A DNA stretch of 61,732 nt from a virus (IMGVR_UViG_3300012943_000035:1-61732), one strand, 5' to 3'; numbered from the stretch's first letter, positions 9,437-48,785 are shown. The notes: a model not told the origin generated them from the letters alone. Made by a program: numbers and translations.

Positions 9437-9448
9437 CAATATGTTATA

Positions 9449-12983: not shown

Positions 12984-12999
12984 CTGACACTGCTACGCC
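12984..12999 (+). repeat. Invariant 16-mer CTGACACTGCTACGCC, copy 1
   Basis: Exact match to four other intergenic copies. Confidence 0.9.
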
Positions 13000-13137
13000 A
13001 GGCCTCCCGACTCTATATCTAGTTGTAAGCGATAACAAGATCGGTAACGAAACAAATAACTGATCTTGAAATCCTGACCCTAAACAAGATCATAAGCGAA
13101 ATACACCTCGCTAATGATCACAAACAAAGGAGCAATC

Positions 13138-13617: not shown

Positions 13618-13667
13618 TCGACCAAGTCATTGAGTGGGGATCAGGGTTAATACCTTGGTCCCCACAA

Positions 13668-13683
13668 CTGACACTGCTACGCC
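13668..13683 (+). repeat. Invariant 16-mer, copy 2
   Basis: Exact match, 3 nt after hairpin GTGGGGATCAGGG...CCTTGGTCCCCAC. Confidence 0.9.
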
Positions 13684-13860
13684 ACCTGCCCCTACTCTGA
13701 CACACCCAATCCCGAAGCAATAGATACACATGACCAACATGGTCAACAACCACGGCGGTTAGCCGAAACCTTGGGAGTGGATAGGTAAACTCATCCGGCG
13801 AGTACAGCGACACAGGTGCGCCTAAAATGACGTGTGTCAACTTTTTAACTAGGAGGTCTT

Positions 13861-14142
13861 ATGTACAACCGACTGAGCATGAACGTAGACCAAGTCGCTG
13901 GTCATCTGATCAAGCATGGGATCAAGTATAAGTCCATCCACCGAACCGAAGAACCAGAGGTGGAGGACGACGCCATCAACATCACCGACCATATCTCTGT
14001 CCAAGTGAGTTCGTACGGAGATGCATACATGTCCGTGGGTCGTTGGGATCCAGTCGCCGAGTGCTTCTTCTACTCACCTGAGCGACTTGGCATTCCTGAG
14101 TTGGTCAACGACATCAAGCTGGCTTTAAAGGAGGAATCATGA
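13861..14142 (+). CDS. Hypothetical early protein
   Basis: AGGAGGT RBS. Confidence 0.7.
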   Translation: MYNRLSMNVDQVAGHLIKHGIKYKSIHRTEEPEVEDDAINITDHISVQVSSYGDAYMSVGRWDPVAECFFYSPERLGIPELVNDIKLALKEES

Positions 14143-14420
14143 GAGGACATAAGTTCATCTGCCTAGTCGATGCGAACTACTTCCATGAGGACTGCTTTAC
14201 TCAAGAAGAGAACGACCAGATCTCCTGGAACGATGACGCGTTCATGACTGTGCTCACACTTGCTCATCCTAAGTTCAGTGACAACTGCGTGACGCTCACC
14301 AACGCAGATGATCCCAACGAGGACTACGAATACGTCCGCACTATTGACGGAAAGCTCTACTACGTAGGCGATTACTGGGACAAGAACGAGACCATACGCA
14401 GGTTCGAACAGACCGACTAA
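14139..14420 (+). CDS. Hypothetical acidic protein
   Basis: AAGGAGG RBS, coupled start. Confidence 0.7.
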   Translation: MRGHKFICLVDANYFHEDCFTQEENDQISWNDDAFMTVLTLAHPKFSDNCVTLTNADDPNEDYEYVRTIDGKLYYVGDYWDKNETIRRFEQTD

Positions 14421-14519
14421 GAACTCAGCTATCCACTACCAGTCTAACAAGACCCATAGAAGCTCGAAGCCAGGTCCCGAATGTGGAGATAGGGACCTGG
14501 CACCCTACCCGACTGCCTA

Positions 14520-14535
14520 CTGACACTGCTACGCC
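14520..14535 (+). repeat. Invariant 16-mer, copy 3
   Basis: Exact match. Confidence 0.9.
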
Positions 14536-14840
14536 GGCTCCCCGAGGAGCTCGACTCAGGTCCAGACCAACCCACGCATAGATCCCGAACCCACATATCC
14601 TCATATGCACAGAGCCGAATGCTTCCGCCGAAGATGTCAGGTCAACCTATCCGTAAGGGCAGTAGAGAGACTGAACTACTTCGGGAGGGAAGCACATATC
14701 CTAATTCCCCTAGAGGAAGAGACGCAGAAGGCAAGGACACTTCTAAGTCTAGCAATCCTCCTAGAACTATTACTGACGGGGAAAAGCGAAGCCTCTCAGA
14801 GGGCGTCGCCAAGCCCCAGGGGTTTGACCAAAGGGTCCTA

Positions 14841-15083
14841 ATGAAATCAGTGAGTTACAAGACCAGAATGTGCCTCAAGTGTAGGCCTAGCAGGATAGAC
14901 CTAAGCAGGCCTAAAGGACCTCTCTACCCTTCCCCTAACGTCCATTGGTGGGTAAGGGATAAGGTAGAGCATAGTCGTTATATATGGGAGCTTGCAGGTG
15001 GTTGCTCGGGTTGTGCAGAGGTATATGAGGATTGCTGTCGAGTGCTAGCTAATCTGCTACATAAATTGGGAGTAAAGATATGA
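14841..15083 (+). CDS. Cys-containing KLGI-motif protein
   Basis: CLKC...CSGC + VLANLLHKLGVKI; TAATG start. Confidence 0.6.
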   Translation: MKSVSYKTRMCLKCRPSRIDLSRPKGPLYPSPNVHWWVRDKVEHSRYIWELAGGCSGCAEVYEDCCRVLANLLHKLGVKI

Positions 15084-15375
15084 GTAGTAGCTATAGGTTT
15101 GATGGGAAATTCTCTAAGAAAGACATTTTAGGTGCCGTTAAGAAGTGTGGGTTGGAGGTGGCTAAGTCTGATTCCTCAAGTTCCACTCAGTTCTGTATCA
15201 CTGATGGTGAGTGCTACATCTGGGCTTATAACGACCGAAAAGGCGTATATGGGTTTGAGCGCTATGGAAACAACTATGATGCTTATGAAGCTATCTTGCT
15301 ACCCCTAGCGGAGGAGCTTGGAGCTGACGTCATCAACGAGGATGAGGAGCAACCTGAGGATATAGGTGAGGAGGA

Positions 15376-15606
15376 ATGAGCGGAAACCATAAGCGTAAGG
15401 ATAGGAATAGGTGGGTTGAGCGACGTGCTCACAGTGCCTTATGCTTGCTTCATCTGTTGGGAGATTTAGGTATTAAGAGCGCTGATGGGGTTGAATCTAA
15501 GTGGAATCCTGACTTCATAGAGGTCTATACAACTCGACATACTAGAGATATGGCCGAACGATTGCATCGCTTATGGAGCTCGGAGCAGAGACTGCCCAGA
15601 TCCTGA
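15376..15606 (+). CDS. KLGI-motif microprotein
   Basis: CLLHLLGDLGIKSA. Confidence 0.65.
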   Translation: MSGNHKRKDRNRWVERRAHSALCLLHLLGDLGIKSADGVESKWNPDFIEVYTTRHTRDMAERLHRLWSSEQRLPRS

Positions 15607-15631
15607 ACCCATAATCACACAAGGAGAACGC

Positions 15632-15898
15632 ATGAGAAAGACATTAGGTTTCACAGTGTTGATGGTTGTGTTGGTCGCTTCTTGCGGACCTTATAAAGTG
15701 CAGGTCGACGATATCAAGGTTGATGGCAACATCACCCATACGATCGCTTTCAACTTCGATGACCTTAAGAAGTACTTCAAGGCTGAGTGTGAAGAAGAGG
15801 TAGCCCCAGCGGATGTCGCTGAGTGCGTGGATGCGAAGGTAGGTAAGTTCTTAACCTTCATGTCCACCCCGCTTCCTAGCCCATCTGCTACGCCTTGA
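15632..15898 (+). CDS. Putative lipoprotein
   Basis: VASC lipobox, AAGGAG RBS. Confidence 0.65.
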   Translation: MRKTLGFTVLMVVLVASCGPYKVQVDDIKVDGNITHTIAFNFDDLKKYFKAECEEEVAPADVAECVDAKVGKFLTFMSTPLPSPSATP

Positions 15899-16070
15899 TG
15901 AGACTACCTAGAGTGTACATAAGGACTGACTTCCCACGTTGGTCTTACGGGATATACGAAGGGGTTTTTAGGCGCAAGGCTGTCTTCGCTAACGACTTAT
16001 GGTCTTGGGATAGGTTTGGTCGAAGGATTAAGGTGAATATTAGGTTTAAAACCATCAGCATTCAAGTCTG

Positions 16071-16601
16071 GTGGTAATGAGGAGTAAGTATATGCTTTAC
16101 TATCATAAGTGCAATGACTGTCTGACAGCTTTTACGACCGTTGAGAGTGTGGTGGACATGTGCGATTGCAATGGTCCAGTCACTCTGATGGGCGTTGTTC
16201 AAGGCGATAAGTATGTGAAGACTGAGAATCGTCCTCCATGCGATGGTCGCTGCACCCATGCTTCTGGTCCTCATTGTGACTGCATGTGTGGTGGAGCTAA
16301 TCACGGCTCTGGCAAGCTCGTTCCTGTGGTTGTTAAAGAGGGAAAGATTTGCGCAGTGGGTCTCAGCGAAGAGGATATCGAGCGAGCTCAGGTTTATAGA
16401 CAGGTTAGAGATGCCGCTCAAGTAGTCTTTGATAAGAAATGGGGCGAAACTTACGCCAAGATTCAGTCTAGAACCTGGATCGATAGACCTGAGTATGTTG
16501 GGTATATCAATGCTTCACGTATGCTGGAAAAAGCCAATGGTCTTCGTCAGCATTGGCCTCGCATCAAGGCTTTGGCAGACTTCATCTCTAAGAATAAGTA
16601 A
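16071..16601 (+). CDS. Cys/His-rich metal-binding protein
   Basis: CNDC, CDC, CDGRCTHASGPHCDCMCGGANHG. Confidence 0.7.
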   Translation: MVMRSKYMLYYHKCNDCLTAFTTVESVVDMCDCNGPVTLMGVVQGDKYVKTENRPPCDGRCTHASGPHCDCMCGGANHGSGKLVPVVVKEGKICAVGLSEEDIERAQVYRQVRDAAQVVFDKKWGETYAKIQSRTWIDRPEYVGYINASRMLEKANGLRQHWPRIKALADFISKNK

Positions 16602-17711
16602 TGGCCACCAAGAGAAAGAAGAAGCAAGCTAAAGAGATCAGACATAGAACTGCCAGACGTAAGGTGATGACTCGTCTACGTAGGATCATGGGGCAGTTAG
16701 ATACCAACTGTAAGGTCACTGATTTTAACTATTGGTACACAGTATTCACTCATCTTAAAACAAGTGAACTAGATTTTGTGAATGAAATCATTAGTCTTGG
16801 TCAATATGAAGACATAACTGACGATACTACAGAGGCTTATAAAGCCATATTGATGGAAAGAACTTTGGGATTAACCAATGAATAGGTATCACTTCCACGA
16901 TACTCATCTAGTTGATATAAATGGTTGGCGCTTCAATTTCAAGCGAATGACTGCGGATCGTCTTGAACCCACTGGACACACAAGGAATAACATTTGGTTG
17001 ATCTGGCTCGATAAAGAGAAGTGTATCACTGCGCCTGCTCAAGATCTAGCAGACATTCATCCTCAAACTACGTCCAATCATGGAACTTGGGATTGGAATA
17101 TGTGGTTTAGCTTCTTCTCTCCGCCTGAACATTACTACAATCAAATGATCAACGAAGCTTACATGAACTACTTAATAGAGAAGTCACTTAATTCCTGAAC
17201 ATATATCTCTGCATAACGGAGGCAATATGAAATACGAAGTTTTGATTCGTTGGAACAACCCAGGTCCCACAAAGTACCTGATGGCGAGCGAGTCTAATCT
17301 CGATCTCAACGCTGCGTTTGCTAAGGCTGATGAGATGCTCAAAGTGCATAGCGATTGTTTCGCACAGATTGTGCAGAGTAATACCAATGAAATCGTCGCC
17401 ACGATCAACTAGACTGCACGCGAGAGGAATGAACAGAGCTCTAGCTCTAATTATCCTCTTCGTGGCAAGCTTTATCGAGTTGCTGCTCCTGGTGTACATG
17501 GTAGCTCATGGATTTAGAGCTGCTGGTCTCACTGTGCTAGTGCTGTTCATGTGGAATCTCTCTGCTATCATTGCTATGACTGTCTACATATTGAGTCGTG
17601 GTTCTAGTCAACAGAGTGGATACATGGAAGTTTCGAACTACTTGAATCTCAACAAGATGGCTAACAAAGATAAGTGATCCGAACATATATACGGATAGGA
17701 GGAATGCGCTT

Positions 17712-18212
17712 ATGAACAGACTAGGTTGGTTAGAACGAGAGCTTGAAAAAGATAACTTAGATCCTTCTCTCCGTGAGAAGTATGATGCAGAAGCGAACGC
17801 TATCTGTGATCGTATGTCTGAACTTCAAGCTAAGAATAAGGTAGCAGCTGAGGAACAGCGTCGTCTCGATAAGGTTGCTGCAGATCAACGAGCAGAAGAG
17901 CAACGCTTTGAGAAAGAAAGACTTGACATTCAATACGTTGAGGAGTCTTTACACGATCTAGCTATCAAGATTGCCGGTGACAATGCAGACCAATGGCTTG
18001 AGACTGCTCTCAAGTTGTATACGATTGATCCCAACGATAACTTAGTTACTTCAATCGCCCATGGTCCTGAGCATCCAGAGTCTTGGGCTTGTGATACGTA
18101 CCTTGATGCAAAGAAGAAGATCTTGCAGTTGATTCGCTACAAGTATCGCGATCACTTTGAACGCGGTCACGACTTCTTCTACTATCCTGAAGGTGAGGAG
18201 CAAGCGTCATGA
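17712..18212 (+). CDS. Hypothetical coiled-coil protein
   Basis: AGGAGG RBS. Confidence 0.65.
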   Translation: MNRLGWLERELEKDNLDPSLREKYDAEANAICDRMSELQAKNKVAAEEQRRLDKVAADQRAEEQRFEKERLDIQYVEESLHDLAIKIAGDNADQWLETALKLYTIDPNDNLVTSIAHGPEHPESWACDTYLDAKKKILQLIRYKYRDHFERGHDFFYYPEGEEQAS

Positions 18213-18352
18213 ATGTCATCGTGTGGTTTATTGGTATGTACCTCATGTTTAACGGCCATTTCTTTCTTGGCATGATCTTAATGTTCGCCGCATTATCCCT
18301 TAAATAAGTCCGAACGAAGCGCTAGACTCATGGACGAGTCGCCCTGCCAGCG

Positions 18353-18368
18353 CTGACACTGCTACGCC
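18353..18368 (+). repeat. Invariant 16-mer, copy 4
   Basis: Exact match. Confidence 0.9.
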
Positions 18369-19016
18369 ACAGCCCACTGTGGATCCCGAACCTAAATCAT
18401 TACATAAGAGGAGGAAATGGTATGAGCGCAACAGCTGATAGAAGCGTTAGACATAAGTTCGTGTGGGCAAACGTCCACACTGTATATAAGACTGGCAATG
18501 GACACGCTGAGTTTCTTGCTCTAATTAACAAGCCTGAAGTAGATAAGAAATGGGTTGCTCAAGCAATGAGTGAACCTAAAGAAAGTTGGATCACAAGGTT
18601 GTTCAAAAGATTTAAATGAGTGTAGTAAACGAGTTCAAAGTAAAGAACGTCAAATACGGCTCTGATCCCAAGCAAGTCTACATGATAGACGAGCACGGGA
18701 ATCGGAGCGTATTTGTTTTTGATTTCTACTGTCACGATCGTCCAATGGCGACTAAGTTTAACTTCTTCTTCAACATGCATAACAAGCAACTCCTGATCGT
18801 ATATGGTTCCAATGGATCACATCGAGCAGAGACATATGAATGTGGATTGATGAAGTTCTGGGTATCTGGTGATATGCCGGTTCCATCTTGTAACTGGTTG
18901 CAGAACATGCCTGAGCTAATGAATAATATAAGCGAGCAGTTCAAAGAACAACTCGCGTCCTTCACAATAGACCAGATCATCAATGAGCCAGATTATGAGT
19001 CAGTATAATAATTTGG

Positions 19017-19163
19017 ATGGATGAGGAATTAGAGTACGACATAATCAACCGATACGCCATAAAGACTGAGCGATTGATCGATCGCCTGAAACCAGGCATT
19101 AGAGGTTATGCCTCTGTCTTCAACCTAATTACTCTCTTACAGAAACTAGGGATCAAGATATGA
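19017..19163 (+). CDS. KLGI-motif microprotein (48 aa, not in ORF track)
   Basis: ...SVFNLITLLQKLGIKI; TATAAT 7 nt upstream of ATG. Confidence 0.6.
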   Translation: MDEELEYDIINRYAIKTERLIDRLKPGIRGYASVFNLITLLQKLGIKI

Positions 19164-19465
19164 ATGGAGAGGTTATTAGCAAGCCTAATAGAGAGCCTGA
19201 CTTCATGTCTAGAGGAACTAGTTACTTCTGGTTTCAAGAACGAATATATAGAGATGTAGACAGTAAACTACTTCCTATCGAAGTAGATCAAGAATATGGC
19301 CTCATCAGGTTGAGAAAAGAAGATACAAAAGCTTGTAGACACTGTGATCGTTGTAAGGCTAACAAACATTGTGTGCGATCTTTCTTCTCTGAGCAGATTC
19401 AAAGAGCATATTCGTACTGGAATCATGGTGAGTTCGAGAAGATCTTGGGGTTGACAGATGAGTAA
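19160..19465 (+). CDS. Hypothetical protein (paralog of 45402..45767)
   Basis: PNREPDF..RG..YFW..E...IQR.Y..W shared pattern. Confidence 0.65.
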   Translation: MNGEVISKPNREPDFMSRGTSYFWFQERIYRDVDSKLLPIEVDQEYGLIRLRKEDTKACRHCDRCKANKHCVRSFFSEQIQRAYSYWNHGEFEKILGLTDE

Positions 19466-19846
19466 GGAGTTTGCTTCATATTCTACTGAAGAGAAGTGGG
19501 ATAGCATCCACACTAGAATGAGAGTGATTGCTCAAGAAGAGACTGCGTATTCACTTCGTCGCAGACTTAACCCTCATCATCCATTAGTTCAGCAGCGAGC
19601 TGAGGCAAAAGCTTTCAGACACCAACAGTGGGAAAAGTGGTGTGAAATCAAAGACTTATATGCTGAACATCGCGACGAACTTGCCAATACTCAGGGACGT
19701 TCGCAGTACACAGAATGCAGAGATATTTTAGAGCGAATCTTTACGAATGAACTTGATGAAGCGTTAAGACAAACTCTAGAAGAGTAATTCTGAAACAAGA
19801 ATTACATGTCAAACAACAACTCATTTTCCTAAAGGAGGAATTTTAT

Positions 19847-20332
19847 ATGAGTCAGTCACAGAAAGAGGCAGTTTTTTCTGCCATTACGTCCGTAACCAAT
19901 GAAGCTGGTCTTAGTGTAGCGGAAGGTACCGACTACAGTACTGTGCTCAATCGTGAGCATCGTGCACAGATCACTTCGATCTTGGTCGAAGGTTTCCGCA
20001 ATGGAAGCATCGCTCTCGACAAGACGTTTGAAGACGAATCTGGTCTTCGCACCTATTGCTCTGGTCTCACGAGCAACTGGCTGCGTAAGGACAAGCGTCT
20101 CAACGGTGGAATGAAGTACGTCGCAAAGAACCCTGGTTCGCGCGTCGGTTCTTCTGATCCTCAGTTGAAAGCAATGCGCGTTCTCTTGAGCACTCAAGAA
20201 GATGCCGCAAAGCGTGCTGAGATTCAAGGGTTCATCGATGCTCGCGTTGCTTCGATCAAAGCTTCTAAGAAGCCTTCGAAGACTTTCAACGCAGCCGATC
20301 TTCCTGCTGAACTTCAGTATCTCGCAGAGTAA
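19847..20332 (+). CDS. 'QKEAV...NWLRKDKRLNG' family protein, paralog 2
   Basis: AAGGAGG RBS; very similar to 13138 protein. Confidence 0.85.
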   Translation: MSQSQKEAVFSAITSVTNEAGLSVAEGTDYSTVLNREHRAQITSILVEGFRNGSIALDKTFEDESGLRTYCSGLTSNWLRKDKRLNGGMKYVAKNPGSRVGSSDPQLKAMRVLLSTQEDAAKRAEIQGFIDARVASIKASKKPSKTFNAADLPAELQYLAE

Positions 20333-20346
20333 TAAGAAATAGGCTT

Positions 20347-20379
20347 AGGACCTTGCTCTCATGGGCAAGGTCCTTTTCT
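20347..20379 (+). terminator. Intrinsic terminator
   Basis: AGGACCTTGCTC-TCAT-GGGCAAGGTCCT + TTTCT. Confidence 0.75.
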
Positions 20380-20516
20380 ATTGGAGGTATTATGCTCTTG
20401 ATGGGTTACATATTATATCTCGCTGTATTTACTATATTTTTCGGCGAGCTCATCAAAAGGTTCATAGATAAAACGCCTCGCCCCTGATTCTAAAATTTAA
20501 ACATAAAGGAGAAAGC

Positions 20517-21293
20517 ATGAAAAAGTATATCAGTCTTCTGACACTAATGGCTGTCATCGTAGGTTGCAGTCCCGCGAGAGAGGTTGTCCAGATTCAAACT
20601 GGACCTCAAGGTCCTGCGGGCTCGAACGGAGCAGATGGCGCAACTGGACCAGCTGGTCCGCAAGGTCCTGCTGGTCCGCAAGGTCCTGCTGGTCCGCAAG
20701 GTCCTGCTGGTGCAAATGGTCACTCGCTTGTATCTCAGTATCTAGCTGCATCAGAGCTGGAATGTGATAGTGCGGGCGGATCTCGCCTCGATATTTACAT
20801 CGACATGGATGATTCTCTTACGCCTTCCGAAGCCGACCTTTATAGTAACTCTCTTGTTCTCTGTAATGGGCTCAATGGAGCAAATGGTTCCAACGGAAAC
20901 AATGGTCACGATGGTATCGCAGGTCCTCCTGGTTCCGCTGGTCCTCCCGGATTGAACGGTAACCCTGGACACGATGGACTACCTGGACCACAAGGTCAAC
21001 CCGGAACTCCCGGTGCACCTGGATCCAATGGTTCGAATGGCCAAGATGGAGCTCCCGGCCAAGATGCCCATGTTCATCCCAAGAATATCACTGGAAATTG
21101 CTCTTCATTGAGTAGTGGCTATGATGCTCTTATCAAGAACAACACTGTGGAGATCTATACTGCTGGTACTTCATGCTCAGCACCATCCAAAGTGTACACT
21201 CTTACCTCAGCTGCTTCAACCTTCTGGCTCTCCGCTTCGGAGTTGGCCGTGTTCGTCGATCCAGCTGGTGTTCGCGTACTAACTTATAACTAA
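20517..21293 (+). CDS. Collagen-like lipoprotein
   Basis: IVGC lipobox; two Gly-X-Y tracts. Confidence 0.85.
20652..20711 (+). repeat. 18-bp tandem repeat x3.3 (GCTGGTCCGCAAGGTCCT) encoding AGPQGP
   Basis: Perfect tandem copies. Confidence 0.9.
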
Positions 21294-21302
21294 GGAGGCA
21301 AT

Positions 21303-21803
21303 ATGAAGTATTCAATCGCATTGTTTGCAGTATTGCTCATGTTCGTTGTAAGGTTTGCTCATGCTGGAGAACCAGCATGCTCTGAGCAGACTAGTGCTGA
21401 ACAGGTAACTGGACAGCTTGAGATCAACACAGATGTTCCTAGCCACCTGAAAGGCGCAGTGATTATCGTGCGTCGGGCAGATGGAAAGGAATCTCAGGTT
21501 CCAGCTGAACGATTCAAAGTTGTTCCTCGTAAGCAACAGTATCTCACGACTCGCACTGAGCGAAATAAGGTTGTGAGCTGTACTACGAATGAACCACGTA
21601 AGAATAGAGTTGCTCTACTTGGTGGACATGGTACTCAAGAAGGCTTGAAGTCCACGACCAACGGATCCACTACTGAAGTGGAGTCTAATGTTGGATTGGT
21701 CGGTGGTGCTCAGTACCAACGTATGATCACTGATCGACTCTCAGTTGGTGTTCAAGGTCAGACCAATAAGACTGGATCTGTACTCATCGGCGTAGATTTC
21801 TAA
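21303..21803 (+). CDS. Exported protein with C-terminal beta-strands ending in Phe
   Basis: Signal peptide (AHA), C-terminal VLIGVDF. Confidence 0.65.
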   Translation: MKYSIALFAVLLMFVVRFAHAGEPACSEQTSAEQVTGQLEINTDVPSHLKGAVIIVRRADGKESQVPAERFKVVPRKQQYLTTRTERNKVVSCTTNEPRKNRVALLGGHGTQEGLKSTTNGSTTEVESNVGLVGGAQYQRMITDRLSVGVQGQTNKTGSVLIGVDF

Positions 21804-21817
21804 TAGAAAGTAGAATG

Positions 21818-21853
21818 AACCCGGATCCCAACTTGGGGTCCGGGTTTTTACTT
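21818..21853 (+). terminator. Intrinsic terminator
   Basis: AACCCGGATCCCA-ACT-TGGGGTCCGGGTT + T-run. Confidence 0.75.
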
Positions 21854-21854
21854 T

Positions 21855-22043
21855 ATGTTCATACCACACGAGAAAAAGAAATCACTCACCGCTCTCCTGA
21901 ATGTGTTATCCAAGCTCGGCATAAACTGCCGGTTCGAGAACCTCACTATATCTATATTTACTAGAGGTTATGAGATAACACTAAAAGGATCTGAGCGAGA
22001 TAAGAATATCTCGGATCACAGAAAGAAAGAATTTAAGTTTTAA
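21855..22043 (+). CDS. KLGI-motif microprotein
   Basis: ALLNVLSKLGINCR. Confidence 0.55.
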   Translation: MFIPHEKKKSLTALLNVLSKLGINCRFENLTISIFTRGYEITLKGSERDKNISDHRKKEFKF

Positions 22044-22309
22044 GCTCCGACACCAGGATTGTTGTCGTCATGAGCTGATGATGTTGGAGTAGGAACTTTG
22101 CCCTTCATCTTGTCTTCGCTCACCTTACGTGGAGCTCTAGCATTACCAACATTATGTAGTTGACCCTTCGTACCATGATCTTCTGGCAATTGACCAGTAA
22201 GCGTACGAGGTCTGTAAGACATGAAGTCATTATCTGGGTCCTTAGCATACTCAGATGCCTTGACTAGACTCCATTGGCCATTGGCCGCTATCTTAAGCAA
22301 CTCACTCAT
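22040..22309 (-). CDS. Isolated minus-strand hypothetical protein
   Basis: TATTAT 6 nt upstream of ATG; MSELLKIAANGQWSLVKA. Confidence 0.65.
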   Translation of the reverse strand: MSELLKIAANGQWSLVKASEYAKDPDNDFMSYRPRTLTGQLPEDHGTKGQLHNVGNARAPRKVSEDKMKGKVPTPTSSAHDDNNPGVGA

Positions 22310-22342
22310 ACTCCTATAATACCACGCCCCATAGTCGGGCTG

Positions 22343-22358
22343 CTGACACTGCTACGCC
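22343..22358 (+). repeat. Invariant 16-mer, copy 5
   Basis: Exact match, 2 nt after GCCC-CATAGTC-GGGC hairpin. Confidence 0.9.
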
Positions 22359-22405
22359 GGGGCCACCCTGTCCCCGATCATAAATACCCCTAGGAGGAAT
22401 ACTGT

Positions 22406-41319: not shown

Positions 41320-42275
41320 CAAGATCAAAGCCCAAGACAACCGTTGCACTGCAAAGCCTTATTTCTACGTGGTGCGCACCAAGCGTTGGCGCCTTTGTAA
41401 GGAAGGCTACGGTTCTGGCGATACCCGCACTGGTTGGGTTGATCACTCTGGTGACCCCGATGTCTACTACTCTAAAGAAGAGTTTGTAAAGTCTTATTTG
41501 GAACGTCACGACTATGAACTCTCACCTCCAGAACCTCTTGATCAATTTGAGCTCGCCGATCCACAATGTGTGGGAACGTATAATCTCGAATGCGCTAAAT
41601 ATGCAGAAGAAGTTGAAAAGCTTAAAAATGACGCTGAAGATGCATTCGAAGAACTGGAAGAGTTTGAAGAAGAAGAGTACTACACGGAAGACAACGTCTT
41701 CTTCACGCAAGAAGCGTACGAAGAGCACGTCCGCCTAAACGGTCACAACCTCGGGAAACGCGGGGTAGATTATCATTCATATGTTAAGCATGCATTCCGC
41801 AATCCAGAGATGGAGAAGCTATTTACTGCTATTGCTGCTGTAACAGGTAAGGATTGGAAATGAAGTTCAGAATTAAGACCAAGGATAGTATCTTGTTCAC
41901 TAACAGAGTGTTTGTTCTTGAGGCCTCTTCAAAAGAAGCCGTGATTGAGCAAATTAAGAAGGACTATCCTAATTCGCACATCTTAGCTATATCGGAGGAA
42001 GAGTCGAATGAGCATTCGTGAGACTGTTAAAGATCGTTTAGCGACTGTAGCTCCCGACTGCGGCGATAATTCCTGCAGGTTCGCTGTGAAGCGAGGCGGA
42101 ATGAGAACTAACGGTGGGTGTCGCTGTGTTGAGAACGCAGGTGGTTCCAGATCCATGATCAAGTGGGATCCTTTCCAAAAATTAGCGGCAGCTCAAGCGG
42201 GCATAATCAATGAACTTCTTAACGAGATAGATCGCCTGAATAAAGAGAAGTATGGCGAATGAATGGGAGAGAAAA

Positions 42276-43463
42276 ATGTCATATAAAGCTGTTCTCACTA
42301 AGGGTAGAGTCCCGATCAAGATCTGGAGCGACCTGGCAACAGTGGAAAGCGCGGCCTTGGACCAACTCACGAACACAGCTAATCTGCCCTTCGTGTTTAA
42401 ACATGTGGCAGCTATGCCCGATGTCCATTTGGGCTACGGGGCAACTGTGGGTTCTGTTATCGCGACTAAAGGTGCGATCTGCCCAGCAGCAGTTGGAGTC
42501 GACATTGGCTGTGGAATGATTGCTGTTAAAACCGACCTTGATGCGAAGGTTGTCCAGGATAAGATTTCAGAAATCCGTAAGAGCATTGAGCGCTCTATCC
42601 CTGTAGGTCATGAAGGCAATCGCAGGATCACGACTTCGGTTGAGAACTGGCAAGGTTGGGCTACGTTCAATGCTCTCACTAAGCCAAGCAAAGACCTTCT
42701 ATCTCGTGCTCAGTCCCAACTTGGTTCTCTCGGTGGTGGCAACCATTTCATCGAAGTATGCCTCGATACTGAGCAGAACGTATGGGTTATGCTTCATTCT
42801 GGTAGCCGAAACATCGGAAAGACTCAGGCCGAGAAGCATCTAGATGTATCAAAAGGCTTGATGAAGAAACTCTTCATCAGTCTTCCTGATCCAGATCTAG
42901 CATATCTTGCTGAACAAACTCCTGAGTTCGATGCTTACATGGCAGACCTTAATTGGTGCCAAGATTATGCCTTGCAGAATCGCGAAGAAATGCTTACGCG
43001 AGTTATCAAAGACCTCTCTTATGCCGTTCATGGCGAAGAGGGAAAGATTCAGACGTCGTTGAAGGTGAACTGCCACCATAACTACGCGTCTAGGGAGCAT
43101 CATTATGGGGAAAATGTCATCGTCACTAGGAAAGGGGCTGTCCGCGCCCGTCAAGGCGACCTGGGTATTATTCCTGGTTCTATGGGTACTAGGTCTTACA
43201 TCGTACGTGGTCTTGGAAATCCTGAGTCCTTTCATTCTTGCAGTCACGGAGCAGGTCGAACAATGTCCCGTGGAGAGGCTAAGCGACGGTTCACTGTCGC
43301 CGACCTCGAGCTGCAGACGGCTGGAATCGAATGTCGAAAGGACGAAGGAGTATTAGACGAGATTCCTGGTGCCTATAAAGACATCGATGTCGTTATGGAC
43401 AATCAGAAGGATCTTGTTGAGGTGGTTGCTCAGCTGCGTCAGGTAATGTGTATAAAAGGGTAA
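42276..43463 (+). CDS. rtcB: RNA ligase RtcB
   Basis: MPDVHLG, GVDIGCG, GGGNHF, HSGSR, HHN, PGSMG, SHGAGR. Confidence 0.96.
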   Translation: MSYKAVLTKGRVPIKIWSDLATVESAALDQLTNTANLPFVFKHVAAMPDVHLGYGATVGSVIATKGAICPAAVGVDIGCGMIAVKTDLDAKVVQDKISEIRKSIERSIPVGHEGNRRITTSVENWQGWATFNALTKPSKDLLSRAQSQLGSLGGGNHFIEVCLDTEQNVWVMLHSGSRNIGKTQAEKHLDVSKGLMKKLFISLPDPDLAYLAEQTPEFDAYMADLNWCQDYALQNREEMLTRVIKDLSYAVHGEEGKIQTSLKVNCHHNYASREHHYGENVIVTRKGAVRARQGDLGIIPGSMGTRSYIVRGLGNPESFHSCSHGAGRTMSRGEAKRRFTVADLELQTAGIECRKDEGVLDEIPGAYKDIDVVMDNQKDLVEVVAQLRQVMCIKG

Positions 43464-43668
43464 TGCCAAAGATTAACAAGAAAGTCTTGAAGAAATCACT
43501 TTGGGGATCGCTTTCCAGGGTGATCGGTGTTGGGCTCGGAGCTGGAGCAGGTAGTTTAATTCACCAGCTAGTCGGTGGCGGATTCAGTGGTTGGGGTGCA
43601 GCGCTTGGCATGGCTATCGCTAGCTTCTTTCTAATGTGGTTCGCTGAGTACGAGAGGGAGCTTGACGA

Positions 43669-44121
43669 ATGATCGTATATAAGACTGGAGACGTACTTGA
43701 TTCTGAAGAGCCGTTGGTCGCACACGGATGTAACTGTTCTGGGGGATTTGGTTCTGGATTCGCTAAGGCGGTTGCCACGAGGTACCCACATGTGCGAGAG
43801 GGCTACCTCCATCGTTTTAACACTAGGGGCTGGCAACTTGGCGAAGTACAGCTTATTGCAATTGGAGATGGCTCCGGGCGAATTATCGCAAATTGCGCTA
43901 CGCAACAACGATACGGCAAGCCAACTGACGGCCCGTTTGTCTCTTATCCTGCTATTAGACAAGTTGTCCGTAATCTCTGTCAAAGCTGGCCAAACGGCTT
44001 TGCCATTCCCAAAATAGGTGCAGGTTTAGCTGGCGGTAATTGGGACATCATATCTGAAATTATAAACGAAGAGAGTGGTTCCGTGGAGGTTCGTGTATAT
44101 GTCCTGGACTCTCCAAGATGA
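43669..44121 (+). CDS. Macrodomain (ADP-ribosylhydrolase-like) protein
   Basis: GDVL, HGCNCSGGFGSG, PKIGAGLAGGNW. Confidence 0.9.
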   Translation: MIVYKTGDVLDSEEPLVAHGCNCSGGFGSGFAKAVATRYPHVREGYLHRFNTRGWQLGEVQLIAIGDGSGRIIANCATQQRYGKPTDGPFVSYPAIRQVVRNLCQSWPNGFAIPKIGAGLAGGNWDIISEIINEESGSVEVRVYVLDSPR

Positions 44122-44323
44122 GATCGCTGAGGCCGAGATGCTTCAGCTTAACTTAGGCAAGTGTGACGGACCTTGCGAACGAGATAACGTTCCTAGGGTG
44201 GAATATAAAGAGAATCGCCACGACTCAGATACGCTGTACCAGATGTGTGGATGGTGCGCGGTCGAGAACGACGAGTACTGGAAGGAAATGTGGGCTATGT
44301 ATTATAGCCAGATCTTATGACCG

Positions 44324-44332
44324 TGGTATAAT
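44324..44332 (+). promoter_or_regulatory. Extended -10 promoter (TGGTATAAT) for nadM
   Basis: TGnTATAAT consensus 7 nt upstream of the conserved leader. Confidence 0.65.
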
Positions 44333-44338
44333 GAAATT

Positions 44339-44386
44339 GTAGGCCGACAGAGAGTTGGCTGAAAACAAAAGAAAGAGATTCTTATG
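44339..44386 (+). promoter_or_regulatory. Structured 5' leader, copy 1 (candidate riboswitch/pseudoknot)
   Basis: GTAGGCCGAC-AGAGA-GTTGGCTG-AAAACAAAAG; shared with the nadV leader. Confidence 0.65.
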
Positions 44387-45394
44387 GACTACAACTACTG
44401 TGTATTCATTGGCCGTTTCCAACCGTGCCACACCGCCCACCTCCAAGTAATCAGACAAGGTTTAGAAGAAGCTAAAGAACTAATCATCGTAATTGGTTCA
44501 GCTCGTTCTGCCCGCAACACCAAAAATCCATTCACGTATGACGAGCGAGTAGCTCTTATCTCCGGCTGTCTCACAGCTGAGGAGAAGGCCAAGGTTCACT
44601 TCATTCCTGCTCGTGACTATCATTATAGCGACTCCAACTGGGTTACTGAAGTTCAGCAGAGAGTGAACGCTATCACTCGTGGTGACTCCAACGTCTGCCT
44701 TATCGGAACCTACAAAGACTCCTCAAGCTACTACGTCAAGCTCTTCCCTCAATGGGACTTCATTCCTGCTCGTACCCACGAGATGATGGATGCAACTGAA
44801 GTTCGTCACAATATCTTCACCGGTAAGAAGTTTGATCACCTAGTTCCAAACTGGGTTCATGGTTTTATCTTCGATAACTTCTTAGGTGAATCTCTTCATC
44901 TTGATCTTGCTAAGGAATATGAGTACATTCAAAGCTACAAGAAGTCTTGGGCTGAAGCTCCTTTCCCCGTCACGTTTGTAACCGTCGATGCAGTTGTCAT
45001 TCAGTCTGGTCACGTACTGGTAGTGAAGCGTAAGATGAACCCTGGTAAGGGCTTATATGCACTTCCCGGTGGCTTCTTGAAGCAATCCGAGCGTCTAGAA
45101 GATGGTGCTATCCGTGAGCTCAAGGAAGAGACTGGCATCAAGGTTCATGTTCCAGTTCTCAAGTCTCATGTCGTTGACTCTCGAACTTTCGACTATCCTG
45201 GTCGCTCCCTGAGAGGGAGAACGATCACGACTGCATTCTGTATCAAGCTCCCTGACGGTGAACTCCCAGAAGTCCGAGGAATGGACGATGCTGAAACAGC
45301 TGTCTGGTTACCGCTTATGGATGTCCTCAGCATGGAGGATAAGTTCTTTGAAGACCATGCTCACATCATCCGCTATTTTGTTAACCGATTTTGA
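44384..45394 (+). CDS. nadM: Bifunctional NMN adenylyltransferase / ADP-ribose pyrophosphatase (NadM-Nudix)
   Basis: GRFQPCHTAH, KNPFT, Nudix box GGFLKQSERLEDGAIRELKEETG, RSLRGRTIT, FEDH. Confidence 0.93.
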   Translation: MDYNYCVFIGRFQPCHTAHLQVIRQGLEEAKELIIVIGSARSARNTKNPFTYDERVALISGCLTAEEKAKVHFIPARDYHYSDSNWVTEVQQRVNAITRGDSNVCLIGTYKDSSSYYVKLFPQWDFIPARTHEMMDATEVRHNIFTGKKFDHLVPNWVHGFIFDNFLGESLHLDLAKEYEYIQSYKKSWAEAPFPVTFVTVDAVVIQSGHVLVVKRKMNPGKGLYALPGGFLKQSERLEDGAIRELKEETGIKVHVPVLKSHVVDSRTFDYPGRSLRGRTITTAFCIKLPDGELPEVRGMDDAETAVWLPLMDVLSMEDKFFEDHAHIIRYFVNRF

Positions 45395-45401
45395 GGTAAA
45401 C

Positions 45402-45767
45402 ATGACAAAGAAAGTTAATGAACCAAAACTTGTAGTTCCAAACTGGCGACCATGCGATTATGTAAGTAAGCGTGGTGTTGAATACTGGTGGGCTCCCGAG
45501 TGGGTTCGCAACCTAGGTGGGTCTGCTAGTAAGATTCGTCCTATCAAAGACAAGAAGACTGGCGATGTGAACTTACACATGGAGTCTAAGGATGGTACAA
45601 AGCTTTCTTATATTCAAGGTTCTATCCAGCGTGAGTTCAAGCAATGGCATGAAGATCGCAAGATTGATTATCTTATCCTAGGGGAAAACGAAGACGAAAT
45701 TCTAAATGTGGATCGTAATGAAGCCACTGCTGAAAAACGAGGTTCCAATGTTGAAAGTGGGGATTGA
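45402..45767 (+). CDS. Hypothetical protein (paralog of 19160)
   Basis: GAGG RBS; shared motifs with 19160. Confidence 0.65.
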   Translation: MTKKVNEPKLVVPNWRPCDYVSKRGVEYWWAPEWVRNLGGSASKIRPIKDKKTGDVNLHMESKDGTKLSYIQGSIQREFKQWHEDRKIDYLILGENEDEILNVDRNEATAEKRGSNVESGD

Positions 45768-46152
45768 TATTCATGGAGTGGCCACAGATGCTACAGGGTT
45801 CTTTCAAGAACTCACCAAGACCCTTGTCGAGGCAGGACATGAGGTGCATATTATCACTGGTCCACCTGCTGAGCTTGCTAGGCGTGAGGTCGAAGCACTC
45901 GGACTTTCGTACACTCATCTATTCTCGATTGTGGACCATCACATCGCCGCAGGAACGCCTATCACTGTTGACTCTAGAGGCCACGTTTTCTGCGAAGACT
46001 ACCTCTGGGACAGAACGAAAGCCGACTACTGCTTGAAGAACGGCATTCAGCTTCACCTAGATGATTCAGATGCGTATAACTACTTCTTCAAGACCCCTTA
46101 CGCAAGATTTTATTCCAAGACGAAGAGGACCCACTATGTCAAAGCGGATTGA
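45748..46152 (+). CDS. HAD-superfamily-like protein
   Basis: IDIHGV, IITG, K, LDDS. Confidence 0.65.
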   Translation: MLKVGIDIHGVATDATGFFQELTKTLVEAGHEVHIITGPPAELARREVEALGLSYTHLFSIVDHHIAAGTPITVDSRGHVFCEDYLWDRTKADYCLKNGIQLHLDDSDAYNYFFKTPYARFYSKTKRTHYVKAD

Positions 46153-46392
46153 AGCAAAACTTGGCGTCCTTGGATATGAAGCATTTAAGCCACAGAAACC
46201 GGGCAAAGTTATCTCAGTAAGACCATCTAATCGCTTTCCAGATGAAAGCTATGTAACCTTAAAGTTCTTAGATGGTAGCACTAAAGAAATTAACGCAAGT
46301 CATGTAAACGATTACGAAGAGCTCATTGAAGAGCATCGTAGGAAGTATGAGAAATTTAATCTTGTTGCGCAAGAGCTCAGCAAGATTTAACC

Positions 46393-46437
46393 GTAGGTAG
46401 GCAGAGAGCTTACTGAAAACAAAAGGAGTCTCTAATG
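46393..46437 (+). promoter_or_regulatory. Structured 5' leader, copy 2 (candidate riboswitch/pseudoknot)
   Basis: GTAGGTAGGC-AGAGA-GCTTACTG-AAAACAAAAG-GAG-TCTCT-A-ATG. Confidence 0.65.
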
Positions 46438-47814
46438 AGAGATAATCTGTTACTAGATACCGATAGCTATAAACTTTCCCACTGGGTCCAGTACCCACCT
46501 AACACCACGAGCATGTACTCGTATCTAGAGAGTCGTGGAGGCAAATATGGAAACACCGTTATGTTCGGCCTGCAACCAATCCTTAAAAGATTGGAGCAAG
46601 GCTTCACTCTTCTTGATGTTGAAGAAGCTAGGGATTTCGCCAAGCTACATGGAGAGCCTTTCAATTATGAGGGATGGGTGGCCTGTTTTCATGCGCACGG
46701 AGGAAAGTTTCCAGTCAGAATTAAGGCTGTGGCGGAAGGTACTGTTGTGCCGGTGTCAAACGTCCTTATGTCGGTCGAGTCAACTGACCCTAAATTTTTC
46801 TGGGTTGTCTCATATCTTGAGACGGTCTTGATGCGTATGTGGTATCCGATCACGGTTGCTACCCAGAGTTGGACTATCAAGCAGATCATTCGCGGATTCC
46901 TTGAACGTACCGCTGAAGACCCAGATGCAGAGATCGGCTTCAAGCTGCACGATTTCGGGTCACGCGGTGTCAGTAGTTACGAGAGTGCTTGCATCGGTGG
47001 AGCTGCCCACTTGACCCAGTTCATGGGTTCGGACACGATGGCAGGTATCCGCTTCGCCAACTATCATTATAAGAGTGAGATGGCTGGCTTCTCTATCCCA
47101 GCTGCTGAGCACAGCACGATCACTATGTGGGGCAAAGAACGTGAAGAAGATGCCTATAGGAACATGGTTGAACAGTATGGAAAGCAAGGTAAGCTCTTCG
47201 CGGTCGTTTCTGACTCCTACGACCTCTACAATGCCTGCTCAAACATCTGGGGCAAGAAGCTTAAGGATCAGGTCTTGGGCTGTGGTGGAACTCTGATTGT
47301 TCGCCCAGACTCCGGCGATCCTACGACCGTCGTGCTTAAGACTCTCCAAGCGCTTGACGCTTCGTTTGGGTCTAGCTACAATAAGAAAGGGTTCAAGGTG
47401 CTAAATGGCGTCAGAGTCATCCAAGGAGACGGAATTAACGAGGACTCAATCAGAAGCATTCTTGAGACTGCTATTGCTGCTGGATTCTCTGCAAGTAATA
47501 TCGCTTTCGGAATGGGTGGAGCACTCCTTCAGCAGGTTAACAGAGACACGCAGAAGTTCGCTTTCAAATGTAGTGAAGCAACTGTTGACGGGCACTCAGT
47601 TGAGGTCTTCAAAGATCCGGTTACAGATTCAGGTAAGCGTTCTAAGAAAGGAAAGCTGGACCTTGTCATGCGCCTTGAAAAGGGTAAGCCTACAATTAGC
47701 ACTGTTAAAGGAGAGAGCTTCGGTTCTCTACTCCGTCCTGTCTTCGAGAACGGTAAGATCTTACGAGAATACACCTTGGAAGAAGTTCGTAGGAACTGTC
47801 AGGAGACTACGTGA
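46435..47814 (+). CDS. nadV: Nicotinamide phosphoribosyltransferase
   Basis: TDSYKLSH, LHDFGSRG, PAAEHS, VSDSYD, RPDSGDP, IQGDG, FGMGGALLQ. Confidence 0.95.
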   Translation: MRDNLLLDTDSYKLSHWVQYPPNTTSMYSYLESRGGKYGNTVMFGLQPILKRLEQGFTLLDVEEARDFAKLHGEPFNYEGWVACFHAHGGKFPVRIKAVAEGTVVPVSNVLMSVESTDPKFFWVVSYLETVLMRMWYPITVATQSWTIKQIIRGFLERTAEDPDAEIGFKLHDFGSRGVSSYESACIGGAAHLTQFMGSDTMAGIRFANYHYKSEMAGFSIPAAEHSTITMWGKEREEDAYRNMVEQYGKQGKLFAVVSDSYDLYNACSNIWGKKLKDQVLGCGGTLIVRPDSGDPTTVVLKTLQALDASFGSSYNKKGFKVLNGVRVIQGDGINEDSIRSILETAIAAGFSASNIAFGMGGALLQQVNRDTQKFAFKCSEATVDGHSVEVFKDPVTDSGKRSKKGKLDLVMRLEKGKPTISTVKGESFGSLLRPVFENGKILREYTLEEVRRNCQETT

Positions 47815-48093
47815 TTCACGAGAGTGGTATTCCTAAAAGACTGTGGGTTTACAATAAGGAAACTGGTTCTTTGCTTAAGAAGACTCTTGAGTTCAAGGAA
47901 GCTACCCATGAGACTTGGTACCAAGACTTCGGTGGTCACAACACCTATGATCCCTACTACATTGACGAGGATAAGGATGCCCTCGTTGATAGGGTTCATA
48001 AAGGTCTAGCTACTGAACTCCAAGAAACACTACATCACTCTGAAAAACTTCTGAACTTTATCCGTAAACTGACTCGGAAAGTATAATCAAAAG

Positions 48094-48306
48094 GTGATAA
48101 AACCCGGTAAATACAGACATTATAGAGGTGGAATGTACATCGTACTCTTCACCGCTCAGGATTCTGAAACGAATAAACCCGTAGTGGTCTATATGAACGA
48201 GACCCATGGGACTTACTATGTTCGTCCTCTGAAGGAGTTCACTTCTAATGTTATGGAAGACTCCGAAGACGGCGGCGTGCCTAGGTTTAAGTTGGTGGAC
48301 AAATGA
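48094..48306 (+). CDS. DUF1653-like protein
   Basis: GKYRHYRGG.Y.V...DSET..VVY...VRPL..F...PRF. Confidence 0.8.
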   Translation: MIKPGKYRHYRGGMYIVLFTAQDSETNKPVVVYMNETHGTYYVRPLKEFTSNVMEDSEDGGVPRFKLVDK

Positions 48307-48785
48307 ATCTGCGCAAGATAGCTTTTGGTGATAGAGATATTCAAAAGAAGCACCACATCCATGTTAACTCTACTGTCTCTTATTGGAGAGACGAGTTTGA
48401 TGGAGATGGAAACCAAGTAGTTCTTGCATACGGAAAACAAAAGAAAGAGCGAAACAGAGGCGTTTGCAAGCGCGAAGACATGGTATCGATTGGCTATCGG
48501 GTTAATGCCTTAAGAGGTGAAATTGGCCATGGCTAAATCCTATAGACCTAGTAGAGGAAATTGGGATCGCAGAGATGGTTTAAGAATTAATAGGCTGAAC
48601 GATAACCGAATGGTCAGTAGGTATACTCACTCTATATCTCTGTGGGATGCCGACAATATAGTACAAGATAATGAAGACGGCAACGGATACCACCATATAA
48701 GCATTGCAAAAGAATTGCGCAGATGTAACTCCGGCAAGTGCAGAAAAGTTAACGGGTATAACGGCAAACTGAACGGGAGAATGTA

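Follow-up and report, generated by a model that had tools for sequence, protein, structure and literature searches.

Two short leaders stand directly in front of the nicotinamide adenine dinucleotide (NAD) salvage genes nadM and nadV in IMGVR_UViG_3300012943_000035:1-61732, a 61.7-kb IMG/VR virus record with an estimated completeness of 36% (hereafter, the window, meaning the whole stretch of DNA analysed). The window leaders are one instance of a widespread leader that is absent from Rfam 15, and we place them with high confidence in a family of conserved sense-strand leader RNAs that is dedicated to these two genes in numerous phages and bacteria. Because each cistron has its own copy, even inside an operon, we infer that the leader controls translation, and it probably sets the amounts of NadM and NadV through a partner. 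Both genes and their leaders lie on the + strand. nadM (44384-45394) encodes a bifunctional nicotinamide mononucleotide (NMN) adenylyltransferase/Nudix protein of the ADP-ribose pyrophosphatase type (336 amino acids; PF01467, cytidylyltransferase-like, 2.2e-12; PF00293, NUDIX, 3.6e-19), and nadV (46435-47814) a nicotinamide phosphoribosyltransferase (459 amino acids; PF18127, NAMPT_N, 7.4e-26; PF04095, NAPRTase, 2.5e-59).

Two hairpins at the ribosome-binding site

The window leaders (44339-44371 and 46393-46425) are identical in 27/33 columns. The six differing columns make up three pairs of one 7-bp stem with both sides changed, from C-G to U-A, from C-G to A-U and from A-U to G-C; the stem is capped by AGAGA, and two G.U pairs are retained in both copies. 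An initial annotation of this DNA had described the two leaders and the three compensatory stem pairs, and both were confirmed.

The nadM leader has the full two-hairpin architecture. Its hairpin 1 (44342-44360) consists of GGCCGAC, the loop AGAGA (44349-44353) and GTTGGCT, with 7 bp including the two G.U pairs, and is followed by the A-rich, unpaired linker GAAAACAA (44361-44368). In the predicted fold, hairpin 2 (44369-44383) is formed by AAGAA and TTCTT around a second AGAGA loop, a weak Shine-Dalgarno sequence, with the ATG following at 44384; this is the counterpart of the conserved second hairpin of the family described below. The leader folds at -14.8 kcal/mol (z -3.62; 2/200 shuffles as good) and scores 42.2 bits over 44339-44386 against our model R2, whose training set included this sequence.

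The nadV leader begins 3 nt after the TAA (46388-46390) of the preceding open reading frame (ORF), and its hairpin 1 (46396-46414; GGTAGGC, loop AGAGA at 46403-46407, GCTTACT) begins 6 nt after it. The 3' part (46415-46434) holds the linker GAAAACAAAAG, the Shine-Dalgarno sequence GGAG (46425-46428) and TCTCT (46429-46433). The canonical hairpin 2 is absent here. TCTCT could pair with loop 1 or with AGAGA at 46438-46442, and the second option appears in the minimum-free-energy and centroid folds as an alternative local hairpin (46428-46443; G-TCTCT / AATG / AGAGA-T) that carries the start codon in its loop and takes the place of hairpin 2. This leader folds at -13.3 kcal/mol (z -2.46; 3/200 shuffles as good) and scores 37.3 bits against R2 over 46393-46437, again as a member of the training set. 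Both window copies have the hairpin 1 by which we define the family, with an R-N-N-G-A pentaloop on the sense strand within ~60 nt upstream of nadM or nadV; the defining hairpin 2, with a Shine-Dalgarno sequence (GGA-N-N or AGAGA) in its loop next to the start codon, is present only in the nadM leader.

No third full copy was found in the window by pattern or R2 searches. The 13-mer CTGAAAACAAAAG occurs exactly twice in the 61.7 kb and once more with one mismatch, at 48431. The full leader pattern had no further exact match, and with the seven others at 3 mismatches each the total was 9 matches observed vs 6.85 expected. A partial copy of 17 nt (GAAAACAAAAGAAAGAG; 48433-48449, + strand) corresponds to the linker plus the 5' half of hairpin 2 of the nadM leader, without hairpin 1, and lies inside an ORF (48303-48536). 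Its fold was not better than shuffles (z +0.85), it scored 14.5 bits (E 1.4) against model R1, and it could be either a remnant or an A-rich chance match.

The exact pattern of the window copies matched no other IMG/VR record, and R1, built from these copies only, was too narrow, yet its weak matches led to the family. The family was collected through NadM and NadV homologues by reading their upstream regions. Two hairpins were read before nadM in 25/28 IMG/VR loci found through NadM; two of the others were ambiguous and one was cut by a contig end. Many of these records have a further copy in front of nadV. In hairpin 1, a stem of 3-10 bp, free in sequence, carries a purine-rich pentaloop R-N-N-G-A. 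The linker is short and unpaired, G-poor by eye, and variable both in sequence and in length, at about 4-17 nt apart from one of 40 nt. The loop of hairpin 2 starts with GGA and normally serves as the Shine-Dalgarno sequence; the start codon is touched by the 3' arm of this hairpin or lies within it. The leader, about 45-60 nt long, fills the whole 5' untranslated region and takes in the Shine-Dalgarno sequence and start codon.

The leaders fall into two loop classes. Class A, which includes the window, has hairpin 1 of the form C-[A/G]G[N]GA-G and hairpin 2 of the form (A/U)NAC-GGAGA-GUN(U/A). In class B, hairpin 1 is of the form G-AUAGA-C and hairpin 2 is A/U-rich, its loop being GGAGU, GGAGC or GGAUU. 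Among 43 class-A leaders, loop 1 was AGAGA in 22, AGTGA in 18, GGAGA in two and AGCGA in one, closed by C-G in 42/43. In the 33 class-B and bacterial leaders it was ATAGA (23), ACAGA (3), GGAGA (2), ACGGA (2), AAAGA (1), AGGGA (1) or GTTGA (1), closed by G-C in 27/33. The shared pattern over the 76 tallied leaders is R-N-N-G-A in loop 1 and GGA-N-N in loop 2. GGA was present in loop 2 of 33/33 class-B/bacterial and 40/43 class-A leaders, and in loop 1 of 5/33 and 2/43, respectively.

Covariation carries the case for a structured RNA. The 43 class-A leaders were aligned to R2 (alignment A5), and such model fitting biases pairing next to loops; the 33 class-B and bacterial leaders were aligned with MAFFT (A7) after the segments had been cut with a hairpin finder of our own that accepted stems from 3 bp upwards. 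In class A, 93.3% of cells were paired compared with 64.6% in shuffles, none of 500 shuffles was as good, and 10/11 pairs had changed on both sides (132 cells); when the partner was shifted by one to three columns as a control, pairing was 27-55%. In the class-B/bacterial set, 91.4% of cells were paired compared with 50.4% in shuffles, and 12/12 pairs had changed on both sides (172 cells). RNAalifold on plain MAFFT alignments recovered the same two hairpins in both classes, with an extra G:Y pair across loop 2 in class B (G.U in 20, G-C in 11). The structured, strand-specific RNA at the ribosome-binding region of both NAD-salvage genes that the initial annotation had proposed thus stands, and conservation upstream of homologues, which it had named beforehand as one of the points on which the proposal could fail, was found in numerous phages and bacteria.

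An inverted repeat upstream of NAD genes could instead be a DNA operator, since NrtR operators are known at such positions (PMC2330246); a terminator, a functionless chance match or a recent duplication was considered as well, the last because the window copies share their flanks. According to the available passages of PMC2330246, NrtR controls nadM, nadV and prs in bacteria with ADP-ribose as effector, and its operator is a 21-bp palindrome with a conserved GT-N7-AC core. The leaders differ from such DNA palindromes with conserved arms in ways that indicate RNA: the conserved centre is asymmetric, the complementary arms are free to vary with compensation, the stems contain G.U pairs, and the element is always oriented with its gene. 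GAAAAC rather than a T-run comes after the hairpins, and the terminator scan listed none at 44342-44360 or 46396-46414. Chance is ruled out by the dozens of independent relatives that have the element. Covariation and orientation refute the operator, terminator and chance explanations, and we give this whole group a practically negligible likelihood.

Searches against Rfam 15 with cmscan, as the initial annotation had called for, matched no family to the leaders. There was no match at the gathering score in the window or at E ≤ 10 in 44200-46600, nor at E ≤ 10 even when just the two leaders were searched (71-76 nt each, 147 nt together). The only low-scoring rows (mir-1322, SNORD35, 6A, ctRNA and similar) were chance matches. 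The NAD+-I riboswitch (nadA motif) was likewise rejected, with no covariance-model match in the window or the leaders. NAD+-I is built of two tandem domains; in NAD+-II the Shine-Dalgarno sequence is covered. Both resemble the leader in being cis-acting leaders of NAD-related genes, but the hairpins here are without internal loops and the genes are the salvage genes nadM and nadV, not nadA or pnuC.

The initial annotation had further proposed an H-type pseudoknot, in which the AGAGA loop pairs with TCTCT or TTCT by the start codon and the A-rich tail runs along the stem, as in preQ1-I or NAD+-II riboswitches. The complementarity does exist in both window copies (AGAGA:TCTCT, 5 bp, in copy 2; AGAG:TTCT, 4 bp with a G.U pair, in copy 1), and the A-rich linker is identical in both, but neither is conserved. 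Over 43 relatives the helix was paired in 44.8% of cells; three of its five pairs were unpaired in 28 to 36 sequences, pair 14-48 being unpaired in 36/42, and the A-rich tail was not conserved outside the window phage. The relatives instead have the second hairpin with the Shine-Dalgarno sequence in its loop, and in copy 1 the TTCT is already used as the 3' arm of hairpin 2. Whether loop 1 is AGAGA, AGTGA or GGAGA shows no covariation with the hairpin 2 arms, and no consistent complementarity of loop 1 with loop 2 or with these arms was seen by eye. No preQ1 or NAD+ riboswitch model matched. We therefore consider the pseudoknot very improbable. As a conserved feature of the family it was rejected by the pairing count over the relatives, and with it a preQ1-I-type pseudoknot (loop-tail pairing and A-rich tail not conserved) and the NAD+-II riboswitch (pnuC motif; no Rfam match, and the pseudoknot covering the Shine-Dalgarno sequence not conserved).

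Occurrence in phages and bacteria

The leader was closely tied to nadM and nadV when searched without regard to genes. A gene-blind scan of IMG/VR for the two loop cores gave at least 117 stretches, 80 of which were taken as loci and filtered by R2. At least 20 R2 matches were obtained at E ≤ 0.01, and 19 of the 20 listed lay directly before a nadM or nadV homologue (blastp). Across five whole phage records (1.44 Mb), strong matches occurred only at nadM and nadV leaders, two each in four records; in the fifth, the nadV leader was strong and the nadM leader, with its long linker, was weak and in two pieces. One further weak match (E 0.23) was found in these records. Model R3 gave one match in each of five whole bacterial genomes (3.6-5.8 Mb) and a match in one of 151 sampled Gammaproteobacteria, all six at nadM or nadV starts.

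Over 514 kb of loci, R3 found 48 matches, all on the gene strand, of which 25 were at nadM and 20 at nadV. The other three were one nadV with an in-frame TAA and two sites before other genes in a single phage fragment (L299, G161:C1). This fragment has four leader copies (804-849, 1251-1297, 5135-5182 and 9390-9438), which precede a 122-amino-acid ORF (function not assigned), nadM, a gene for a 314-amino-acid radical SAM protein, and nadV. Because leaders stand before other genes here, the regulon can extend past nadM and nadV. In the locus with the in-frame TAA (L023, 4013-4100), the stop follows codon 5 of the nadV behind the leader (MSINK*) and the frame then continues, which could be due to a sequencing error, a downstream start or read-through.

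Hairpin-2-type sites were present at 77/804 ORFs, and 48 of the 77, by our own count of the list, were nadM or nadV. A class-A pattern scan in bacteria gave 15 stretches, one of them real: it precedes a nadM homologue on a contig with the label Terracidiphilus. No ORF stood behind the other three model matches. R3 found no leader at the NARP1-type prs-plus-Namat loci of Bacillus phage PBC2, Staphylococcus phage IME522, Vibrio phage ICP1 and Mycobacterium phage Rumpelstiltskin, where the genes are 0-33 nt apart.

We read by eye 19 named phages that encode NadM and NadV. A clear two-hairpin leader was seen in Phaeobacter phage MD18, Xanthomonas phage LucasX, Synechococcus phage BUCT-ZZ01 (loop AAAGA), Ralstonia phage RSP15 (AGGGA and ACGGA) and Serratia phage BF (6-nt loops), and a clear leader at nadV only in Ochrobactrum phage OC, whose nadM start lies beyond the stretch examined. 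Partial or variant forms were found in Lw1, IME-SM1 and ACP17 (hairpin 2 only), Salicola phage SCTP-2 (hairpin 1 only) and BcepSaruman. No leader was seen in phiN3, ValKK3, 50AhydR13PP, CcrSC, Karma, Lacusarx, PG07 and Mx1.

The initial annotation had treated the element as a candidate phage riboswitch, a scope that proved too narrow, as the leader is also present in bacterial chromosomes. At 31 full-length bacterial nadM loci, the strict finder was positive in 14 and R3 added two. Leader-bearing bacteria include Ralstonia, Lysobacter, Stenotrophomonas, Marinobacter, Neptuniibacter, Thiorhodococcus, Xenophilus, and Caulobacter and epsilonproteobacterial metagenome-assembled genomes; the leader was not seen at the nadM loci of Psychrobacter or Moraxella macacae. 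In general, its range covers phages, alpha-, beta-, gamma- and epsilonproteobacteria and cyanobacterial metagenome-assembled contigs. In five of five bacteria tested, nadV lies downstream of nadM and has a leader of its own, and every leader-bearing genome checked encodes both NadM and NadV.

Several variants depart from the common layout. In the Thiorhodococcus nadV leader (L297, about 1400-1500) the order of the hairpins is swapped, with CCCGG-GGATT-CCGGG followed by GGG-AGAGA-CCC by the start codon. Hairpin 2 of the cyanobacterial nadV leaders stands 13 nt ahead of the start codon, and a separate Shine-Dalgarno sequence is present, so its GGA loop is kept for more than ribosome binding. GGAG is buried in a stem in Neptuniibacter nadV. 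The closing pair may be C-G, G-C, A-U or U-A, and variants with 6-nt loops exist. Together with the missing hairpin 2 of the window nadV leader, the variants point to two loop-presenting modules beside the ribosome-binding site that are read in trans, not to one fixed fold.

In Salicola phage SCTP-2 (L302, upstream of 382 and 1492) the nadM and nadV leaders are near-identical over ~40 nt (GGC-GATAGA-GCC, linker, AGGAGA), as they are in the window. Such pairs hint at gene conversion or recent duplication of leaders within a genome. In another IMG/VR locus (L006, about 2900-3000), a tRNA-like sequence (GGTTCGATTCC...) lies directly upstream of nadV, and no leader is present there.

Candidate partners of the leader

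The leader moves with its cassette among distant hosts, and its partner should therefore be a metabolite, an enzyme encoded by the cassette or a universal host component. We tentatively favour a putative protein operator, perhaps one for feedback by NadM or NadV, while rating it somewhat short of probable. The two loops would each offer a site to a dimeric protein, which would occupy the ribosome-binding region and repress initiation. Since the nadM-nadV cassette takes the leader along between very dissimilar hosts, the cassette's own enzymes are the simplest candidates, and NadM or NadV could act as the repressor in feedback, possibly modulated by its own nucleotide ligands. A universal host protein would be an alternative partner. 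The features favouring a protein are the two separate loop-presenting hairpins, their variable spacing, the tolerated variants of loop and closing pair, the swapped order in Thiorhodococcus and the offset hairpin 2 in cyanobacteria, together with the presence of both enzymes in every leader-bearing genome checked and, by analogy, the PyrR precedent, which shares the class-A loop core.

Two-loop operators of this kind have precedents. At the thrS operator, bound by the dimeric threonyl-tRNA synthetase, and at two-site CsrA operators, two loops lie near the ribosome-binding site and a homodimer competes with the 30S subunit; for thrS this is feedback by the enzyme that the gene itself encodes. 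The leader differs from thrS in having no tRNA-like loops and from CsrA sites in that GGA is invariant only in loop 2. A CsrA/RsmA operator, which requires GGA in both loops, was rejected on the loop counts given above, loop 1 being mostly without GGA.

PyrR is phosphoribosyltransferase-like and reads a hairpin loop in response to nucleotides; among enzyme-type regulators it is the nearest precedent. Its loop is drawn in another register than the class-A loop. The sequence CCAGAGAGG in class-A hairpin 1 equals the core of ARUCCAGAGAGGYU, the PyrR recognition sequence given in the available text of PMC7430163. The leader is nevertheless without the purine-rich internal bulge, the class-B and bacterial loops (GATAGAC, GACAGAC) are dissimilar, and the output also differs, being translational, at the ribosome-binding site of nad genes, in place of attenuation at pyr genes. 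A PyrR site proper (RF00515) was rejected: the model matched neither the window (E ≤ 10) nor any of nine class-A loci (63 kb), and the hairpins have no internal bulge.

A motive for tight control comes from the NARP2 preprint (bioRxiv 10.1101/2024.02.11.579819). NadV and NadM form the NARP2 pathway, by which phages rebuild NAD+ after NAD+-depleting defences, and the available text of the preprint reports excess NAD+, consumption of phosphoribosyl pyrophosphate (PRPP) and one operon that was toxic in E. coli.

Several observations weigh against a dedicated leader that acts as a protein operator. The cutting used for A7 and the model fitting used for A5 both favour pairing beside loops. About half of the named NadM/NadV phages sampled are without a recognisable hairpin 1, and 15/31 bacterial nadM loci gave no finder or R3 match at nadM, one of these showing hairpin 1 by eye. 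The single exception among the 20 listed R2 matches is a class-A leader (28 bits) before a 105-amino-acid membrane-like ORF, in a 14-kb locus (L040, 9331-9696) with no nadM or nadV, and the phage fragment L299 has leaders before the radical SAM gene and the 122-amino-acid ORF. Two cyanobacterial metagenome-assembled contigs have C-GGAGA-G, of class-A type, before nadM and the class-B G-ATAGA-C before nadV; the leaders of one genome can thus differ in loop letters and class, so the loop type does not track a lineage-specific partner. None of the genomes checked had a leader without NadM or without NadV, and so the two enzymes are not separable as candidates. We know of nothing in either NadM or NadV that binds RNA.

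Alternatively, the two small hairpins could form a riboswitch, in which the conserved loops, alone or together with the linker, recognise an NAD-cycle metabolite (for example NAD+, NMN, nicotinamide, ADP-ribose or PRPP) and ligand-dependent association of the loops hides or frees the Shine-Dalgarno sequence in loop 2. The leader would then be a candidate tiny riboswitch class that reads the NAD pool through NAD+ or a cleavage product such as nicotinamide or ADP-ribose. The same RNA stands with the same genes across phages, proteobacteria and cyanobacterial contigs, a distribution that is typical of riboswitches and needs no host-specific factor; it occupies the entire 5' untranslated region with the Shine-Dalgarno sequence and start codon, and in L299 it also stands before other genes, as in riboswitch regulons. 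Guanidine-II (mini-ykkC) offers a precedent, with two small, plain hairpins at the ribosome-binding site, conserved loops and closing pairs, free stems and linker, and very low information. The leader shares with it the two independent hairpins, the conserved loops, the free stems and linker and the position, but its loops are purine-rich pentaloops without kissing complementarity and its genes are those of NAD salvage. Guanidine-II itself was rejected, as there was no Rfam match and, with 5-nt loops of R-N-N-G-A and GGA-N-N, only the architecture is alike. A riboswitch would also have to work with only about 3 + 3 invariant loop positions, no junction or internal loop for a pocket, and two purine-rich loops that by inspection have no Watson-Crick complementarity to each other. 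Loop length, closing pair and hairpin order all vary, hairpin 2 is absent from the window nadV leader and from Salicola phage SCTP-2, and no known riboswitch model matches. On balance we regard a riboswitch as possible but doubtful, and as slightly less likely than a protein, which the initial annotation had also allowed for. If it were one, NadM and NadV would be translated only after NAD+ destruction, for example by an NAD+-depleting anti-phage defence.

The leader might also sense nothing. As a constitutive element inherited with the cassette, hairpin 1 would protect the 5' end or shield the ribosome-binding site from the sequence upstream of it, and hairpin 2 would present the Shine-Dalgarno sequence in a loop so that translation works in any host. 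Hairpin 1 often coincides with the predicted start of the transcript or lies close to it, a loop leaves the Shine-Dalgarno sequence exposed, the cassette is mobile among very dissimilar hosts, and R-N-N-G-A loops could be kept for fold stability alone. However, the same element occurs between cistrons, as in window copy 2, where there is no 5' end to protect, and hairpin-2-type sites are rare at other genes of the same loci. The loop letters have stayed fixed while the stems turned over completely, which argues for recognition rather than mere stability. We judge a purely constitutive leader unlikely, and still incline towards a protein operator.

A full-text search of the literature outside subscription-only papers and supplements found no description of a nadM or nadV leader or riboswitch. 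The available passages of PMC2330246 do not mention a hairpin or riboswitch, and the available text of the NARP2 preprint does not mention riboswitch, untranslated region or hairpin and does not address expression control. A portable leader before both genes offers a direct handle on how NARP2 expression is set, and its conservation reaches from phages of soil and sea to the Ralstonia, Stenotrophomonas and Marinobacter chromosomes and to cyanobacterial contigs. It is a short, easily synthesised candidate for either a new riboswitch class of NAD metabolism or an enzyme that represses its own mRNA, and either outcome, if true, would add a regulatory layer beside NrtR, NadR and NiaR. The leader would also be usable as an annotation marker of NAD-salvage cassettes.

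Genes and signals around the cassette

A promoter-like site on the + strand (44305-44332; TAGCCA-16-TATAAT, with TG before the -10 hexamer) precedes copy 1, with 10/12 matches. It had the tied best score in 43500-48600 and was the only site there with TG before the -10 hexamer. Its end lies 7 nt before the GTAGG of copy 1, and judged from this sequence the transcript likely starts at ~44338-44340, in agreement with the initial annotation, which had put copy 1 at the expected +1 of a promoter. The region scan revealed no promoter-like site before copy 2. A -10 hexamer a few bases 5' of hairpin 1 is also present in a further locus (L003), class-B phage loci and bacteria.

Small ORFs fill the interval between nadM and nadV (45402-46390, + strand), one at 45402-45767 and two in overlapping frames ending at 46152 and 46390, with uncertain starts. 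None had a Pfam match, and one matched phrog_13623 (function not assigned). Directly upstream of the cassette, the region 42252-44121 encodes an RtcB-type RNA ligase (phrog_1075, 2.5e-141) and a 150-amino-acid protein that matched a 'phosphatase' PHROG (7e-35) and, weakly, a Macro domain (E 6.7e-4, under the Pfam cut-off). From these annotations, the ligase, the 150-amino-acid protein, nadM and nadV look like a repair and counter-defence island.

By blastn, no close relative of the window was found among GenBank phages, with one 137-nt match at 69.7% identity, nor was one found in IMG/VR with the exact leader pattern. In all, 97% of the words sampled from 44000-47900 were present in one soil metagenome run. 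Elsewhere in the window, a ~25-nt motif (CTGACACTGCTACGCC...) occurs five times within 12980-22373, and a 211-nt segment at 13339-13549 is repeated at 20060-20270 with 73% identity; these repeats are probably repeated domains of tail or fibre genes. Repeats of Gly-X-Y-type codons (CTGGTCCGCAAGGTCCTG...) at 20599-21049 suggest a collagen-like stretch of a structural gene.

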